The notes under the pieces: model-generated | The model's database searches: none | The model's input: the letters and a program-made list of their open reading frames with translations, nothing else | What the model was told of the DNA's origin: nothing | Source: a virus | Lineage: Duplodnaviria > Heunggongvirae > Uroviricota > Caudoviricetes | IMG/VR virus record: IMGVR_UViG_2718217859_000005 | DNA length: 45,085 bases | Reading direction: 5' to 3' (one strand) | Part shown: positions 3,487 through 20,454 of the stretch, piece after piece | How the letters are laid out: the number at the start of each line of letters is the position of its first letter | How positions within the stretch are numbered: position 1 is the stretch's first letter | Translations under genes and position numbers: made by a program

Positions 3487-3594
3487 TTAACCGACTGACA
3501 GCACAATAAAGAGAATAATGATTTCAGTTAGTGTCAGTACTGTGGCAAGGATTAAAATCAGTTTTACTCTGTTTAATTCACGGTTGCTTTTCAT
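3487..3594 (-). CDS. Tiny hydrophobic peptide (35 aa, one predicted TM segment)
   Basis: ORF found by eye (MKSNRELNRVKLILILATVLTLTEIIILFIVLSVG); no strong RBS. First position of the SPFH operon. Confidence 0.3.
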   Translation of the reverse strand: MKSNRELNRVKLILILATVLTLTEIIILFIVLSVG

Positions 3595-3639: not shown

Positions 3640-4221
3640 TTAATGTGTCACTGGCGCTTCTGGCATACTATGAGTATTCAGGTCGTTAATCATTTCATCC
3701 AGAAGGAGTTCAAGCCCTTCGCGCCCCATAGCAGAGACAATGAAACCATTATCAGGATCTGCGATGAGCATTTTTTGATAGAGAAACAGAACTCGCCCCA
3801 TGCCTTCAGCTTCGCCATATTTTTCAATAAATCCCCATTCGACATGGTTTTGCAGGGCAATGCGAAGTGGTCCGGGGTAGATACTCAGGCAACCATGTTT
3901 CCCCTTGTAAATAACTGCGCGATCTGTAGTTCCATTATCGTTAGGGATATCAACAGTGCCGTTCTTGTCTTCCTCTTCATTTATAAATGTCGTCACATAC
4001 AGCCATCGCCACTGAGCAACCTTCATATCGACTGAAAATCGTCCCAGCAACCCTGCATCATCGGCTTCAGCAATACATTGCATGATTCTTAAACCGTGTG
4101 AGTTTGGATAATCGTATTCACCATCATTAAGTCGCTGTACGGCATCAACAAAATCAATGGTTGTATTGCCAATTTTTATGCCATGTGGCGTAACTTCTGG
4201 TCGGAACTCTGAATGATTCAT
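3640..4221 (-). CDS. Hypothetical protein (193 aa), unknown function
   Basis: Internal ATG of track ORF 3640..4296 with an AGGAG RBS (MNHSEFRPEV...); ATGA overlap with the upstream 62-aa gene. Confidence 0.55.
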   Translation of the reverse strand: MNHSEFRPEVTPHGIKIGNTTIDFVDAVQRLNDGEYDYPNSHGLRIMQCIAEADDAGLLGRFSVDMKVAQWRWLYVTTFINEEEDKNGTVDIPNDNGTTDRAVIYKGKHGCLSIYPGPLRIALQNHVEWGFIEKYGEAEGMGRVLFLYQKMLIADPDNGFIVSAMGREGLELLLDEMINDLNTHSMPEAPVTH

Positions 4222-15528: not shown

Positions 15529-15604
15529 GGCCCTTTAGCTCAGTGGTGAGAGCGAGCGACTCATAATCGCCAGGTCGCTGGTTCAAATCCAGCAAGGGCC
15601 ACCA
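15529..15604 (+). tRNA. tRNA with CAU anticodon (Ile2/lysidine-type or Met), ileX-like
   Basis: 76 nt; 7-bp acceptor stem GGCCCTT/AAGGGCC, anticodon loop CTCATAA, T-loop TTCAAAT, encoded CCA. Closely resembles E. coli ileX as recalled. Confidence 0.85.
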
Positions 15605-15605
15605 A

Positions 15606-15682
15606 CCGCCACTAGCTCATCAGGAAAGAGAGTCAACCCTTTAAGTTGAGAGTGCGAGGTTCGAGTCTCCGGTGGCGGTCCA
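15606..15682 (+). tRNA. Degenerate tRNA-like element (possible pseudo-tRNA; anticodon-loop CCTTTAA)
   Basis: Perfect acceptor stem (CCGCCAC/GTGGCGG) and anticodon stem (TCAAC/GTTGA), but a mismatch in the D-stem and in the T-stem, and C instead of U at position 33. Confidence 0.4.
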
Positions 15683-15684
15683 GT

Positions 15685-15760
<76 letters not shown>

Positions 15761-15763
15761 TAT

Positions 15764-15838
<75 letters not shown>

Positions 15839-16305: not shown

Positions 16306-16731
16306 ATGTTTGGTATTTTCAAAAAGAAAACCCGCAAGGCCATTACCGAAGTGAAGAAGATGGAGAACCGCGACGCAGTGGAGGCGACCGTCTGGGGTGC
16401 GTATTCCATTGCATATGCTGACGGCACCTGTGACGCGAAAGAAATCGCGGTACTGGAGAAAACCATTGCAGCACTTCCTGCCTTTGCGCCGTTCTCGGGT
16501 GAGATTGCACAAATGAGTGCAAATATCCGCGCCCGTTATGAAGCATCGCCGCGTTCTGCCAATGCCGAAGCCCTCCGCCAGCTGGCTGATATTGCAGGTA
16601 CTGATGACGCAGTTAATGTGCTGTGCCTGTGTCTGGATATCGCTGACCAGGATGGTATTGGTCCGGATGAAGAAGCACAGCTCAAGAAAATTGCTCAGGC
16701 GCTGCAGCTACCACTGGAGCAGTACCTGTGA
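16306..16731 (+). CDS. TerB-like domain protein
   Basis: 141 aa; AAGGA RBS. All-helical pattern aligning by eye with TerB (VEATVWGAYSIAYADGTCDAKEIAVLEK...; ...VLCLCLDIADQDGIGPDEEAQLKKIAQAL). Confidence 0.65.
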   Translation: MFGIFKKKTRKAITEVKKMENRDAVEATVWGAYSIAYADGTCDAKEIAVLEKTIAALPAFAPFSGEIAQMSANIRARYEASPRSANAEALRQLADIAGTDDAVNVLCLCLDIADQDGIGPDEEAQLKKIAQALQLPLEQYL

Positions 16732-16892
16732 AAAGTGCGCGCCTTGTGCTGGCTGCCATCCTGCTGTTTCTGGTAGTGGCAGTGGATTTCACCGGACGGC
16801 TGATGTCGGTACTGGCAGATGGTGTGCTGGTGGCGGGGATGGTGATAATGGTGTTGCCTTTGCTGAAGAGTGTAAAAAATACACAGACGTGA
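16728..16892 (+). CDS. Small hydrophobic protein (54 aa, GTG start overlapping the TerB-like stop)
   Basis: ORF found by eye (V/MKSARLVLAAILLFLVVAVDFTGRLMSVLADGVLVAGMVIMVLPLLKSVKNTQT); two predicted TM segments. Confidence 0.3.
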   Translation: MKSARLVLAAILLFLVVAVDFTGRLMSVLADGVLVAGMVIMVLPLLKSVKNTQT

Positions 16893-17086
16893 AATGTTAA
16901 ATCCATCACAATTAAGTTGATTGGGCATTGCTGGTTGACGGAGCTTTTGTTAGAAAAAATTTGCATGGTGGATCCCCCCGGGTGGTGGGCATATGAGTGA
17001 TGTATGTTTCTGTTCTGCTCCTTTATTATGCTGATTCGGGTACTGATACTGAATTCATCGGGAGGCACCCGGCACCATGCAAGCAT

Positions 17087-17109
17087 GCCCCTCTCCTGAG
17101 GGGCTTTTT
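17087..17109 (+). terminator. Rho-independent terminator
   Basis: Hairpin GCCCCTC-TCCT-GAGGGGC followed by TTTTTA. Confidence 0.5.
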
Positions 17110-17153: not shown

Positions 17154-17489
17154 TTATGGCCTGTGTCGTTTTAGTCCGTAGGGGCATATTTGCAGAATGC
17201 AACGGTTATTAAAGCATTCATTAAATACGTTATCTGAATTTGCAGGGCATTCCTGGCTGTTTTTGATTAAATCCCAGAATCTTTTATTGAATGGTACAAC
17301 GTTGTAAATGGTTACAGGTAGCACTTTGTTATTGAGTACGATACCTGTGTGAGTCAGCGTAAATATACTTTCAGGAGGTAAGAAAACATCCGATTGATAC
17401 CAGATTATTAATTTTATTTTACTCCATATGGCTGAAAAAGATATTCCACATGATGGCTGGATAACTGTGTCAATCACAATCCACTTCAT
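17154..17489 (-). CDS. Hypothetical Cys-rich protein (111 aa)
   Basis: Track ORF with a good AAGGA RBS 7 nt upstream of the ATG at 17489; AT-rich; Cys-rich C-terminus ([27 protein letters not shown]). Confidence 0.35.
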
Positions 17490-17661
17490 TTAGTTTCCTT
17501 ATTTATGCCTTGCTGGTGATGTTCTGAAAAGTATAAATGATAATTTTGAATGTAAACCATAGAGCAGAATTATTTTTCTGATGTATGAGGTATCAGGACC
17601 ATCAGTAATTAACGGGTGGCTTTTTTATTGTTGTCAGCTTCCGGATAACGGGAGACGGGGT

Positions 17662-17877
17662 ATGTACCAGATGGAAAAAATCACAACAGGTGTGTCATAC
17701 ACCACGTCAGCGGTGGGGACGGGATACTGGTTACTGCAGCTGCTGGACAAAGTCTCTCCGTCCCAGTGGGTGGCAATAGGCGTGCTGGGGAGTCTGCTGT
17801 TTGGTCTGCTGACGTACCTGACGAACCTGTATTTCAAAATTAAAGAAGACCGGCGTAAGGCGGCGCGGGGAGAGTAG
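17662..17877 (+). CDS. S: Class II holin, phage 21 S-type (pinholin), with dual-start motif MYQM
   Basis: 71 aa from the ATG at 17662 (GGGAGACGGGG RBS). Strong resemblance to S21 as recalled (..[34 protein letters not shown]). Confidence 0.8.
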
Positions 17878-17880
17878 ACG

Positions 17881-18522
17881 ATGAACCATGAAGAAATGAA
17901 TCAGCGCATAAGTTGCCTGGAAAATGAAATCACTGAACTGAATAAAAAACTGTCGGTGCTGATGGTTTCTGAAGATGAAAAAAAACGCCGCGATGAGCAG
18001 GAAGCAGCGTTTTACGATGATTGCATCAAAATTGCTCGCAGGACCTTTGAGAAGATTTTGCAGGAAAAGTTTTTACCGACCGCATTGTCAGAAAAGTACT
18101 CCATTACAGTTAAAAGTGCCGGAGAGGAAGGCAATAAACGTTATTTTATTGCGTCTGCACCGGATAAAGACCAGGAATGGGGGGATAATCGGCCATCTTT
18201 TATTGTGACAAGCGATGACTGGAATATCACGATCCGTGAAGATGGAAAAGTAACACCAGCATCGCACCAGCACAGTGAGGCGCTCATTGAATTTGCCATT
18301 GATTACCTGAAGAACAATAAAAAGCAGGGACTAATGAAGCGCATTGGTCGTTGCATGGGATATCTGCAGGTAGCTGCTGAGATTGAAGCGCTGGCCAGTG
18401 GTGCGGACAAGGATGCAGTTGTGCGGGAGGCTCTTCTTCGTGATTTTGATAATCCGCCCTTTAAAAAAGTGCCGGCTTACTGGTTTCATCCAGGACTGAC
18501 TTATCTTAAAGGACGTATATAA
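17881..18522 (+). CDS. Hypothetical protein (213 aa) with N-terminal coiled coil, inserted between holin and endolysin
   Basis: Starts 4 nt after the holin stop with a GGGAGAG RBS; N-terminal heptad-like helix (MNHEEMNQRISCLENEITELNKKLSVL...); no lysozyme motifs. Confidence 0.6.
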   Translation: MNHEEMNQRISCLENEITELNKKLSVLMVSEDEKKRRDEQEAAFYDDCIKIARRTFEKILQEKFLPTALSEKYSITVKSAGEEGNKRYFIASAPDKDQEWGDNRPSFIVTSDDWNITIREDGKVTPASHQHSEALIEFAIDYLKNNKKQGLMKRIGRCMGYLQVAAEIEALASGADKDAVVREALLRDFDNPPFKKVPAYWFHPGLTYLKGRI

Positions 18523-18531
18523 GCTGGCTCG

Positions 18532-18846
18532 TTATCTGTTGCCGGATAATCGACGGAAGATGCGTTCTTTTTGTGATTTGGCGTAATGATGATCCCACTC
18601 ACATTCAAGGTAGTTTAATTCTTCGTTTAACCAGTCATTTATATTGTCTTTCAGACGTAGAAGCATGGCTGGTGTTAATATTCTGGACATAATGTCGAGA
18701 GTTGGTGGTGTGAGGTGTCCATACGGCTCAGCCTGAATGGATTTTACTGCTTCGTGGTTTTGCTGAATGAGTTTAAGGAATGCTGATTTAAATTGTTCAT
18801 TCATGGCCTGCATGCAGGCGGTATATTTATGTTCATCGTTATACAT
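18532..18846 (-). CDS. Hypothetical protein (about 104 aa), convergent with the preceding gene
   Basis: Track ORF 18532..18900 trimmed to the ATG with a GAGGA RBS (MYNDEHKYTA...). Confidence 0.4.
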   Translation of the reverse strand: MYNDEHKYTACMQAMNEQFKSAFLKLIQQNHEAVKSIQAEPYGHLTPPTLDIMSRILTPAMLLRLKDNINDWLNEELNYLECEWDHHYAKSQKERIFRRLSGNR

Positions 18847-18974
18847 TGCTAAATCCTCGACGGGAATTGTCAGATATATTTCAGCCATCAGGTAAAACAC
18901 CAGTGCCCACCACTGGCGGGCTGAAGACTTAACATATCCAGGGATTCGGAACCGATAAATCCTGATAAATATCC

Positions 18975-19508
18975 ATGAACACCAAAATCAAATACGGTCT
19001 GTCGGCTGCCGTTCTGGCGCTGATTGCCGCAGGTGCGCCTGCGCCTGAAATCCTCGACCAGTTTCTGGATGAAAAGGAAGGTAACCACACCACGGCATAC
19101 CGTGATGGTGCGGGGATCTGGACCATCTGCCGTGGAGCCACCCGGGTGGATGGTAAGCCTGTTATTCCTGGCATGAAGCTGTCAAAGGAAAAATGCGACC
19201 GGGTTAACGCCATTGAACGTGACAAGGCGCTGGCATGGGTGGCGAAAAACATCAAAGTGCCACTGACTGAACCCCAGAAAGCGGGGATCGCGTCATTCTG
19301 TCCGTATAACATTGGCCCCGGTAAGTGTTTCCCGTCGACGTTTTATAAACGAATTAATGCAGGCGATCGCAGGGGAGCGTGTGAAGCGATTCGCTGGTGG
19401 ATTAAGGACGGTGGCAGAGACTGCCGTATCCGCTCAAATAATTGCTACGGTCAGGTATCCCGGCGAGATCAGGAAAGTGCGCTGGCGTGCTGGGGAATCG
19501 ACAGATAA
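18975..19508 (+). CDS. R: SAR (signal-anchor-release) endolysin, T4-lysozyme-like glycoside hydrolase (phage 21 R-type)
   Basis: N-terminal weakly hydrophobic Gly/Ala-rich SAR segment (YGLSAAVLALIAAGAPAPEIL), then a catalytic E-8aa-D-5aa-T triad (EGNHTTAYRDGAGIWT). Pairing with a pinholin is the phage 21 arrangement. Confidence 0.85.
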   Translation: MNTKIKYGLSAAVLALIAAGAPAPEILDQFLDEKEGNHTTAYRDGAGIWTICRGATRVDGKPVIPGMKLSKEKCDRVNAIERDKALAWVAKNIKVPLTEPQKAGIASFCPYNIGPGKCFPSTFYKRINAGDRRGACEAIRWWIKDGGRDCRIRSNNCYGQVSRRDQESALACWGIDR

Positions 19509-19601
19509 GCAGAATATTTTGCTGAAAAATGACGTTGACCAACGCGGACGGATAACACGAAATCCTGCGAACTGGCAAAACCTAAGTGAATAAAAGTAAA
19601 A

Positions 19602-19640
19602 CCCCGTTTGTTGGCAGCAAGCGGGGTTTTGTGTTTCTGA
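19602..19640 (+). terminator. Rho-independent terminator-like hairpin after the endolysin gene
   Basis: AACCCCG-loop-CGGGGTT followed by TTTTGTGTTT. Confidence 0.45.
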
Positions 19641-19663
19641 CCTTGGATAAGGCAAGGGAGAAC

Positions 19664-19846
19664 ATGGAAAAGTATAAACGAATTCTGTTGAGGTTGACTA
19701 TGAAAAACGGCCTTGAACTGAAAGCGCCTGTAACTGATGACATCAGCAGAGCGCTGGCTTTTGCTATTAAGTGGGTGGCGGTCGGTATTGCTGTGTCTCC
19801 GATGCTGTATGGGCTGGCAAAACTGGTCATTGCGTTGAAATCGTGA
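19664..19846 (+). CDS. Small protein with C-terminal TM segment (60 aa)
   Basis: Internal ATG of track ORF 19586..19846 with a GGGAGAA RBS; the longer ORF would span the hairpin at 19602-19640. Confidence 0.3.
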   Translation: MEKYKRILLRLTMKNGLELKAPVTDDISRALAFAIKWVAVGIAVSPMLYGLAKLVIALKS

Positions 19847-19858
19847 AGAGGATTAAGC

Positions 19859-19990
19859 ATGTCAGACAAGCTCATAACGCTGGCGAAGATCCTCTGTGTA
19901 ATCGTCGGCATTTCATTTTCACTAATGCTGGTTGCTCTTAGGCTGGATGATGTTGTCTTCGTCGGGGATGCTGGGGTGAGGGGGATATGA
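19859..19990 (+). CDS. Small membrane protein (43 aa)
   Basis: ORF found by eye; GAGGA RBS; stop overlaps the Rz start (ATGA). Confidence 0.3.
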
Positions 19991-20454
19991 ACCGTGTTCT
20001 GTGTGTGGTGATTATTGTCCTGCTGGTAGCCTGTGGTGCGCTTGGTCTGGGGCTGAATCATTACCGCGATAACGCCATCACCTACAAAGCGCAGCGCGAT
20101 AAAAAAGTCAGAGAGCTGGAGCTGGCGAACGCGACAATTACTGATATGCAGATACGCCAGCGTGATGTCGCTGCACTTGATGCCAGATACTCGAGGGAAT
20201 TAGCCGATGCGAGAGCTGAAAATGAAACTCTGCGTGCTGATGTTGCCGCTGGTCGTAAGCGCCTGCGGATCAACGCCACCTGCTCCGGTACCGTGCGTGA
20301 AGCCACCGGCACCTCCGGCGTGGATAATGCAACCGGCCCCCGACTGGCAGACACAGTTGAACGGGATTATTTCACTCTCAGAGAGCGGTTGATGATGATG
20401 CAGAAGCAGCTGGAAGGGGCGCAGGAATATATCCGCACTCAGTGTATTAACTAG
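19987..20454 (+). CDS. Rz: Rz-type inner-membrane spanin (i-spanin)
   Basis: 155 aa; N-terminal TM segment ([20 protein letters not shown]) and periplasmic coiled coil; contains the embedded Rz1 frame. Confidence 0.8.
20222..20392 (+). CDS. Rz1: Rz1-type outer-membrane lipoprotein spanin (o-spanin), embedded in the +1 frame of Rz
   Basis: [15 protein letters not shown] lipobox followed by a Pro-rich segment ([24 protein letters not shown]); entirely within Rz in another frame. Confidence 0.7.

Follow-up and report, generated by a model that had tools for sequence, protein, structure and literature searches.

Two genes between the pinholin and endolysin genes of a lambdoid Escherichia coli prophage as a probable accessory module

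The lysis region of the virus record IMGVR_UViG_2718217859_000005 (IMG/VR, Caudoviricetes) was analysed within a single stretch of 45,085 nucleotides, hereafter the window, which represents a lambdoid prophage integrated beside the Escherichia coli yecN and DUF72 genes and shares 99.7% identity with E. coli OkiPb01701 across the lysis region. Between the holin gene S and the endolysin gene R, the window contains a block with two open reading frames (ORFs), ORF-A on the late strand and the convergent ORF-B, followed by conserved non-coding DNA (Table 1). In phage VT2-Sakai the ATG of R lies 4 nt past the S stop codon, leaving this slot empty, and because of this adjacency the block is an insertion relative to a real reference. 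An earlier sequence-only reading of the window had described two genes separating an otherwise adjacent S-R pair, one of them a convergent gene of about 104 amino acids (aa), and all of these elements were found at the positions it gave; its bounds for the insert, 17881-18900, were corrected to those in Table 1, which include the 128 bp preceding R.

The two border genes were readily assigned. S belongs to the P21 holin S family (112 bits against a gathering cut-off of 26, E=1.1e-32), has dual starts at ATG 17662 and at 17671 with its stop codon at 17875-17877, and is named 'class II holin family protein' by PGAP in the 99.7% identical E. coli record. R matched the lysozyme family with 87 bits (E=1.3e-24), and its N-terminus, GLSAAVLALIAAGAPAP, fits a signal-arrest-release (SAR) segment as judged by eye only; the R families of Shiga toxin (Stx) phages are SAR endolysins by prediction (PMC8136144). 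Base composition sets the insert apart from its neighbours, with 39–48% GC against 52–57% in S and R, and the lowest GC of the region is that of ORF-B (39–41%).

Table 1. Features of the lysis region and adjoining late region, with positions in the window.
Feature	Position	Strand	Remarks
Four tandem tRNA genes	15529-15838	+	downstream of Q; anticodons cat, ttt, tgt, tcc
Second tRNA, Lys (ttt)	15606-15682		33 bits only in Rfam
TerB-family and DUF3927 genes	16306-16892	+	precede iraM
STnc100 small RNA family (RF02076)	16934-17109	+	full-length match, 93.7 bits, gathering score 47
Anti-adaptor IraM homolog	17154-17489	-	immediately upstream of S
S, P21/933W-type class II holin (pinholin), 71 aa	17662-17877	+	PF04971; left border of the slot
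Inserted block, 1,097 bp	17878-18974		between S and R; ORF-A, ORF-B and conserved 128-bp non-coding stretch before R
ORF-A, 213-aa soluble late protein	17881-18522	+	phrog_1085
ORF-A N-terminal helical module, aa 1-64	17881-18072	+	AlphaFold2 helices 3-26 and 31-64, pLDDT 74-79 across first 20 residues
ORF-A C-terminal domain, aa 97-213, family core	18169-18519	+	H-x-H/R...GRxMGxLQxAAEIE...DNPPFK...W..PG..YLK (alignments A3, A5, A10)
ORF-B, 104-aa soluble five-helix protein	18846-18532	-	phrog_1853; convergent with ORF-A
Conserved element upstream of ORF-B	18894-18944	-	box CCCTGGATATGTT, stem-loop, TTTT
Conserved linker before R	18922-18974	+	...GGAACCGATAAATCCTGATAAATATCC-ATG; without Shine-Dalgarno; common to all occupied slots
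R, lysozyme with Gly/Ala-rich N-terminal segment (SAR-type endolysin)	18975-19508	+	PF00959; right border of the slot
R-Rz interval	19509-19986		two small ORFs
Rz/Rz1	19987-20454 and 20207-20392		after the two small ORFs

The Shine-Dalgarno sequence of ORF-A, GGGGAGAG, is located within the end of S, and its ATG stands 3 nt past the S stop codon. No promoter or terminator of its own was found for ORF-A, and the late transcript is its sole source, which bears out the earlier proposal that it is expressed late along with the lysis genes. The match of ORF-A to phrog_1085, a PHROG family without assigned function, has E=5e-101 and spans profile positions 117-296 of 296; the first 116 positions, which correspond to DUF1327, are absent. 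Aligned with P0071, a DUF1327 protein of 333 aa, ORF-A shows 62% identity over residues 120-333. At their start, the DUF1327 forms and ORF-A have only the first two codons in common. DUF1327 (PF07041) was not detected in ORF-A, which had no Pfam match at E≤0.01, and a 296-aa relative from locus L005 scores 2.7e-40. Because the matches begin past DUF1327, ORF-A is taken as an isoform without this domain and not as a DUF1327 member; judged from its sequence, it is a natural isoform of the mosaic 'YdfR family' (DUF1327, coiled coil, conserved C-terminal domain) minus DUF1327.

In longer relatives the N-terminal helical module of ORF-A comes after DUF1327, and in ORF-A itself a short middle segment joins it to the C-terminal domain, which on its own makes up the 129-aa relative at locus L009. 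A heptad zipper is formed by I10, L13, I17, L20, L24 and L27 (spacing read from the sequence). The sequence-only reading had called ORF-A a 213-aa coiled-coil protein; the length and strand hold, and the heptads are confined to residues ~10-27, the remainder not being coiled coil.

ORF-B starts at ATG 18846, with GAGGA 7 nt upstream, and ends with the stop codon 18532-18534, so that the ORF-A and ORF-B stop codons are 9 nt apart. Longer readings of ORF-B with a GTG or ATG extension (122 aa in the open-reading-frame list, 118 aa by PGAP) were excluded by frame-breaking indels in relatives. The protein matched phrog_1853, likewise a PHROG family without assigned function, at E=1.5e-45 over profile positions 57-158 of 159, and the gene is of full length in 94/94 genomes carrying the window type. 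As no intrinsic terminator was found past its stop codon, transcription of ORF-B is expected to continue into ORF-A in the antisense direction; late transcripts, in turn, have to pass through ORF-B in antisense to reach R.

Neither protein has a transmembrane or signal segment: the maximal 19-residue Kyte-Doolittle mean was 0.76 for ORF-A and 0.94 for ORF-B, and, both being hydrophilic, they lack the transmembrane segment that an antiholin or holin-like protein would possess. Searches of Pfam (also at E≤10), NCBIfam, PADLOC, PDB (by sequence or profile) and BFVD returned nothing meaningful for either, and no toxin, nuclease or immunity domain or fold was found. PADLOC-DB v2 at E≤1 gave no match for ORF-A, ORF-B or the alternative convergent gene of PhiR5_1, and fold searches with ORF-B yielded nothing informative. 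All public names of the two are 'hypothetical protein', and neither is recognisable as a lysis protein, as had been supposed from the sequence alone.

Homologs of ORF-A remain open across dS 0.30–0.77 with dN/dS (ratio of nonsynonymous to synonymous divergence) of 0.30–0.46, and those of ORF-B across dS 0.40–0.55 with dN/dS of 0.27–0.47. At the same loci, the values for S were 0.02–0.08 and for R 0.05–0.20, so that ORF-A and ORF-B evolve 4–10 times faster than the lysis genes. By this pattern of substitution, both are genuine genes under purifying selection. It is highly improbable that they are decaying, functionless remnants, as the truncated, frameshifted and deleted variants (L012, L009), the pseudogene labels given by PGAP to related genes and the taxonomically narrow family might suggest, when dN/dS is clearly below 1 with reading frames intact to dS 0.77, the exact ORF-A sequence occurs on 46 contigs with 253 members in its 90% cluster, ORF-B is intact in every genome of the window type, the pair is conserved at less than 40% identity, and the PGAP 'pseudogenes' are intact 268-aa ORFs.

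Occupied slots proved to be common. Among S-to-R matches sampled in complete E. coli genomes, 31 of 32 have a filled slot, nearly all with 'YdfR family' genes, in a sample that was spread over the genomes and is biased toward copies like the query. Among phage records spanning S to R (51 sampled), about 36 have an empty and about 14 an occupied slot; the empty state predominates among sequenced Stx phages, the reverse of the complete E. coli genomes. The pair is annotated as gp05/gp06 in Stx2 phage 86 and is likewise present in Stx2_12E129. The arrangement, which the sequence-only reading had considered unusual, is thus already in public annotations and ordinary for E. coli prophages. Homologs are frequent at this exact position, contrary to that reading, and none has a known lysis function, in agreement with it. 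Genomic papers on Stx phages (e.g. PMC8136144) cover the conserved pinholin/SAR-endolysin cassette and leave the slot genes unmentioned, and a further literature search gave nothing relevant.

The two-gene form of the window is a minority type: at least 80% of 17500-19600 was matched in 84 of 5,426 complete E. coli genomes, and window-type ORF-B in 94. Any part of 17881-18900 was matched in at least 1,130 of these genomes, most sampled matches spanning the C-terminal domain of ORF-A. In 50,697 phage records the C-terminal domain was found in five and ORF-B in four, and a scan of species-representative genomes gave three Escherichia/Shigella loci only.

Slot contents vary by domain and by gene. 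The simplest type is a DUF1327-only gene of 114 aa (Stx1a phages, L008). DUF1327, coiled coil and C-terminal domain are combined in a 296-aa form without convergent gene (ATCC 25922, L005), and DUF1327 plus C-terminal domain in a 268-aa form accompanied by ORF-B (Stx2 phage 86 gp05/gp06; O104:H4 2011C-3493). ORF-B also accompanies the 213-aa form (window; Stx2_12E129) and the C-terminal domain alone, 129 aa (L009). In PhiR5_1, a protein of DUF1327 and coiled coil is encoded next to an unrelated convergent gene, and L012 has deleted or frameshifted versions. The convergent gene is thus present or absent, and of at least two unrelated kinds.

The closest known counterparts of ORF-A are the YdfR/DUF1327 slot genes, ydfR between essQ and rrrQ in Qin and gp05 of Stx2 phage 86, which occupy the same slot with the same junction. 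In the longer members the two-thirds outside DUF1327 are homologous to ORF-A, and the same ORF-B follows gp05 of phage 86. ORF-A differs in lacking DUF1327, the domain that gives the family its name, and has no domain in common with YdfR of K-12, which is DUF1327 alone. In PGAP, intact 268- and 296-aa genes of this family are labelled 'YdfR family protein, incomplete, missing C-terminus' pseudogenes over their first 336 nt only (DUF1327 plus C-terminal domain genes at L006 2622-3428, L026 1682-2017 and L005 3459-4349); since the full ORFs are open, these calls seem to be artefacts that arise from the short model used for the family.

Lambdoid morons such as bor and lom are extra genes inserted between conserved late genes, and bor is convergent and situated downstream of Rz in lambda. 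The insert resembles them in standing between genes that are adjacent in relatives (4 nt apart in VT2-Sakai, and with the slot empty in most of the sampled phage records), in its lower GC, its dispensability and its mosaic make-up, and ORF-B shares with bor its location on the opposite strand. It differs from them in that ORF-A rides on the late transcript without promoter or terminator of its own, and ORF-B has no terminator and a putative promoter only. On the whole, the insert is probably a dispensable, moron-like accessory module of the late region in a polymorphic S-R slot and not lysis machinery; its content is not needed for lysis, since the slot is empty in lysis-proficient phages of the VT2-Sakai type. 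ORF-A would be expressed from the late, Q-dependent transcript, probably with translational coupling to S, at the junction (S stop, 3–4 nt, ATG) that R has when the slot is empty. Its product would be cytoplasmic and would combine a short coiled coil for oligomerisation with the C-terminal domain, and ORF-B would be an independent convergent gene for a small cytoplasmic protein.

Position invites another explanation. T4 RIII and P1 LydB are cytoplasmic or soluble lysis regulators acting on their holins, and ORF-A, possibly with ORF-B, might in the same way regulate lysis timing by acting on the holin or on endolysin release. Like these, it is small, soluble and encoded in the lysis cassette, and its place between S and R, directly behind the S stop codon, means that it is made in step with the holin; its family always lies one to three genes from a holin, be it of the P21 type, the lambda-S type (PF05106) or PF16080; and the linker without Shine-Dalgarno that R acquires in occupied slots could change the S:R ratio. 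In addition, ydfR was recovered in an envelope-biogenesis screen, according to a work cited in PMC13232886, and this lead concerns DUF1327, which is absent here. The sequence-only reading had suggested modulation of lysis timing, action on the host envelope or cargo set free at lysis as possible roles. A timing regulator is nevertheless unlikely, and evidence on any lysis role for ORF-A or ORF-B leans against it: neither has a membrane segment, lysis-proficient phages exist with an empty slot, and dN/dS is 4–10 times that of S and R, with frameshifted and deleted copies known. ORF-A has no sequence or fold similarity to RIII or LydB, and its relatives, bound neither to one holin type nor to the S-R position, in some cases precede the holin or follow the endolysin and stand beside unrelated holin families, where a specific holin binder should co-vary.

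These wider contexts were obtained with a profile of the C-terminal domain searched against 1.84 billion representative proteins, which gave 22 matches, about ten of them true distant relatives (E=1e-24 to 1e-6); three matches to large HEAT/NACHT and SRCR proteins were rejected as repeat artefacts. Most distant relatives consist of a DUF1327-like N-terminus, coiled coil and C-terminal domain, and the core GR..G.LQ.AAE ... PP.K ... W..PG..Y is invariant in all of them. No conserved catalytic set was obvious in the alignment of the domain, and no PDB relative was found by profile. P0141 and P0147 are located between Q and holin, outside the S-R interval. P0142 is a 184-aa form of coiled coil and C-terminal domain without DUF1327, 39% identical to ORF-A over the domain, and is followed tail to tail by a 105-aa gene 38% identical to ORF-B (E=2e-29). 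This pair belongs to another enterobacterial prophage and precedes its lambda-S-type holin, which has 79% DNA identity to Gifsy-1/2; the endolysin there is 82% identical to Citrobacter phage phiNP. At L010 the ORF-A/ORF-B pair is intact after a different holin and endolysin, beside a deleted R remnant. From these contexts we conclude that the ORF-A/ORF-B unit is old and moves as one, and that its link is with lysis cassettes at large and neither with pinholins nor with the S-R interval. The remnant at L010 (1-410, reverse strand) is an R21-type gene cut to a short, internally deleted piece, and the recombinant cassette there encodes a putative endolysin of 138 aa and a holin of the lambda-S type.

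The two genes do not occur together obligatorily. Most carriers of the C-terminal domain are without ORF-B (e.g. L005, L013, L014): 1,130 genomes match some part of 17881-18900, most sampled ones over this domain, versus 94 with window-type ORF-B. Conversely, at least 91 contigs (L016-L019) have an ORF-B homolog and no ORF-A, the homolog being next to a DUF1327 stub of 10 codons. At L011, ORF-A is 93% identical in DNA and ORF-B 47% identical in protein, and with identities so far apart the two do not co-vary. In pore-forming colicin operons an induced toxin gene is combined with a convergent immunity gene and a lysis gene, and the gene order and orientation of the slot match this layout. ORF-A and ORF-B would in that case be an effector and its antidote, the first induced and the second constitutive, with the lysis genes releasing the product. 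The tail-to-tail pair kept below 40% identity in three genomic positions would suit such a pair, as would the invariably full-length ORF-B of the window type, which has a conserved upstream element or, in the L011/L016 type, a perfect TATAAT of its own, and the minimal locus L009, which retains only the C-terminal domain and ORF-B. A toxin-immunity pair is all the same decidedly improbable, because the two are so often apart on either side and do not co-vary; the C-terminal domain is the most conserved part, the reverse of polymorphic toxins, no toxin domain and no toxin, nuclease or immunity fold was matched, and ORF-B is soluble, unlike the membrane immunity proteins of these operons.

The 128 bp separating ORF-B and R are conserved above either flanking gene and hold two elements. 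Upstream of ORF-B, the box CCCTGGATATGTT contains a -10-like TATGTT (18936-18931) and is followed by an 8-bp GC-rich stem, CGCCAGTG/CACTGGTG (18918-18898), and TTTT, flagged as terminator-like. Nine distinct sequences retain the stem, with 98.6% of cells paired, among them distant relatives whose neighbour is not R. All three substitutions seen in the stem create G.U pairs on the ORF-B strand (A.C if read on the late strand), and as no double compensatory change was seen, the covariation support is modest. The ORF-B homologs of the L011/L016 types are without the hairpin and have a perfect TATAAT directly past the common box; because of this TATAAT at the matching place, the ORF-B promoter was putatively assigned to the box. 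We infer that the hairpin may act as a 5' leader element, stabiliser or attenuator. ORF-B, preceded by a conserved element of its own with a weak promoter-like box and a stem-loop, is therefore most likely expressed independently of the late genes, e.g. in the lysogen.

Two alternatives for this stretch were discarded. A 7-bp stem GCCCGCC/GGTGGGC, present in the minimum-free-energy fold of the window alone, is not conserved, and the comparative stem was preferred; an antisense small RNA against the R start, ending at the hairpin, was dropped as the element occurs also in relatives with a neighbour other than R. Rfam gave no RNA family within the slot. At L016-L019, around position 3811 on the late strand, a strong terminator, GGCCGTCAGTGGGTGACACTGGCGG followed by T7, lies upstream of S, with a stem nearly that of the ORF-B hairpin; the two may have a common origin or may be a recurrent terminator motif of these phages. 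The sequence TGTCAGATATAT (window 18866-18880; L011 ~3540-3560) has opposite orientations in the two types relative to the common ATATCCAGG box, as might result from an inversion or from a palindromic site of recombination within this intergenic region.

On the R side, the linker was found in the window, L001, L002, L003, L006, L008 and L010 and largely in L011, and is absent from VT2-Sakai. It contains two GATAAAT repeats. In phages with an empty slot R is translated from a strong Shine-Dalgarno sequence inside the end of S, and since R exchanges this for a linker without one, filling of the slot may alter R translation, whichever gene fills it.

ORF-B might also be a stand-alone moron expressed from the prophage, for superinfection exclusion, defence or host modulation, which shares a recombination hot spot with ORF-A and is functionally unrelated to it. 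Its GC content, the lowest of the region, its convergent orientation, as in bor, and its occurrence as a lone homolog at L016-L019 would all accord with this, as would the hairpin element of the ORF-B type that in PhiR5_1 precedes an unrelated convergent gene (phrog_2572). Against it stand the negative PADLOC and fold searches, the missing terminator past the ORF-B stop and the adjacency to the C-terminal domain that persists among distant relatives. We consider it a doubtful account of ORF-B, and one largely compatible with an accessory module in the slot.

For the function of the C-terminal domain, the fusion partner offers the only lead. Phage-encoded modulators of RNase E comprise T7 gp0.7, T4 Srd and phiKZ Dip, to which the analogy is functional only, via the DUF1327 of ORF-A relatives that binds the catalytic half of RNase E; homology is lacking, and ORF-A is without the binding domain. 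Two-hybrid and pull-down experiments in PMC13232886 showed that YdfR (DUF1327) interacts with the N-terminal (catalytic) half of RNase E; RNA is recovered along with the purified protein, both activities map to DUF1327 residues 1-72, overproduction of YdfR is not toxic, and no effect on RNA decay was shown. The fusion of the C-terminal domain to DUF1327 in most relatives suggests a reading in which the domain would be a cytoplasmic effector or interaction module of late infection, directed at the process that DUF1327 also targets; the family would then adjust the turnover of host RNA, or some other conflict-type target, and not hole formation, with ORF-B as its partner or as a separate prophage-expressed moron. 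This is offered as a tentative proposal, somewhat on the unlikely side, and its mechanism is graded low because ORF-A of the window lacks the DUF1327 binding domain.

Several points weigh against the accessory-module reading and its extensions. In all family members examined, a holin from one of three families was only one to three genes away, and such constant proximity could mean a lysis-linked role and not a permissive insertion zone. The label 'accessory' in itself says little on mechanism, and the RNase E lead rests on DUF1327, which ORF-A does not have. A sigma-70 scan at threshold gave no ORF-B promoter in the window and our own scan gave weak candidates only, the -10-like box matching at 4/6 with a poor -35. 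The AlphaFold2 model of ORF-A, built from 19 homologs, reached a pLDDT of 52, too poor for fold search. It is also conceivable, and unlikely to hold as a whole, that the tail-to-tail genes make up a conserved module of long standing tied to lysis cassettes, with a late-strand gene that ends in the C-terminal domain and a convergent five-helix gene that has its own hairpin-bearing leader. The two halves would be expressed in opposite phases, ORF-B in the lysogen and ORF-A after Q-dependent induction, and would be mutually antisense, as no terminator separates them. This would be a new kind of switch or effector-partner system, working either as a cytoplasmic modulator of lysis timing across holin classes or as a late modulator of RNase E and RNA decay held in check by ORF-B.

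If the insert is indeed an accessory module, the S-R junction of 21/933W-type cassettes would be a routinely occupied mosaic slot and not a fixed adjacency, and comparisons of Stx-phage lysis modules would need to consider slot content. For annotation, intact slot genes appear to be mislabelled by PGAP as truncated YdfR pseudogenes. Outbreak lineages such as O104:H4 are among the genomes that match part of the insert. The C-terminal domain is synthesised together with the holin and, in many cases, at the same time as Shiga toxin. Its fusion to DUF1327 and the conserved convergent partner with a structured leader provide concrete, testable hypotheses.

The late region of the window runs in the order Q, four tRNAs, TerB-family gene, DUF3927 gene, STnc100-like small RNA, iraM (minus strand), S, ORF-A, ORF-B (minus strand), R, two small ORFs and Rz/Rz1. 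The tRNAs occupy the stx position of Stx phages; the cat tRNA is Ile according to PGAP, and the second tRNA is unannotated by PGAP in the near-identical genome. The TerB-family and DUF3927 genes together with iraM represent further late-region cargo, and the STnc100 match is placed between the DUF3927 gene and iraM, directly upstream of the lysis cassette. The R-Rz interval is a second polymorphic slot, here with two small ORFs (~60 and 43 aa in PGAP), and the antirepressor gene ant fills this position in VT2-Sakai and Stx2 phage 86.

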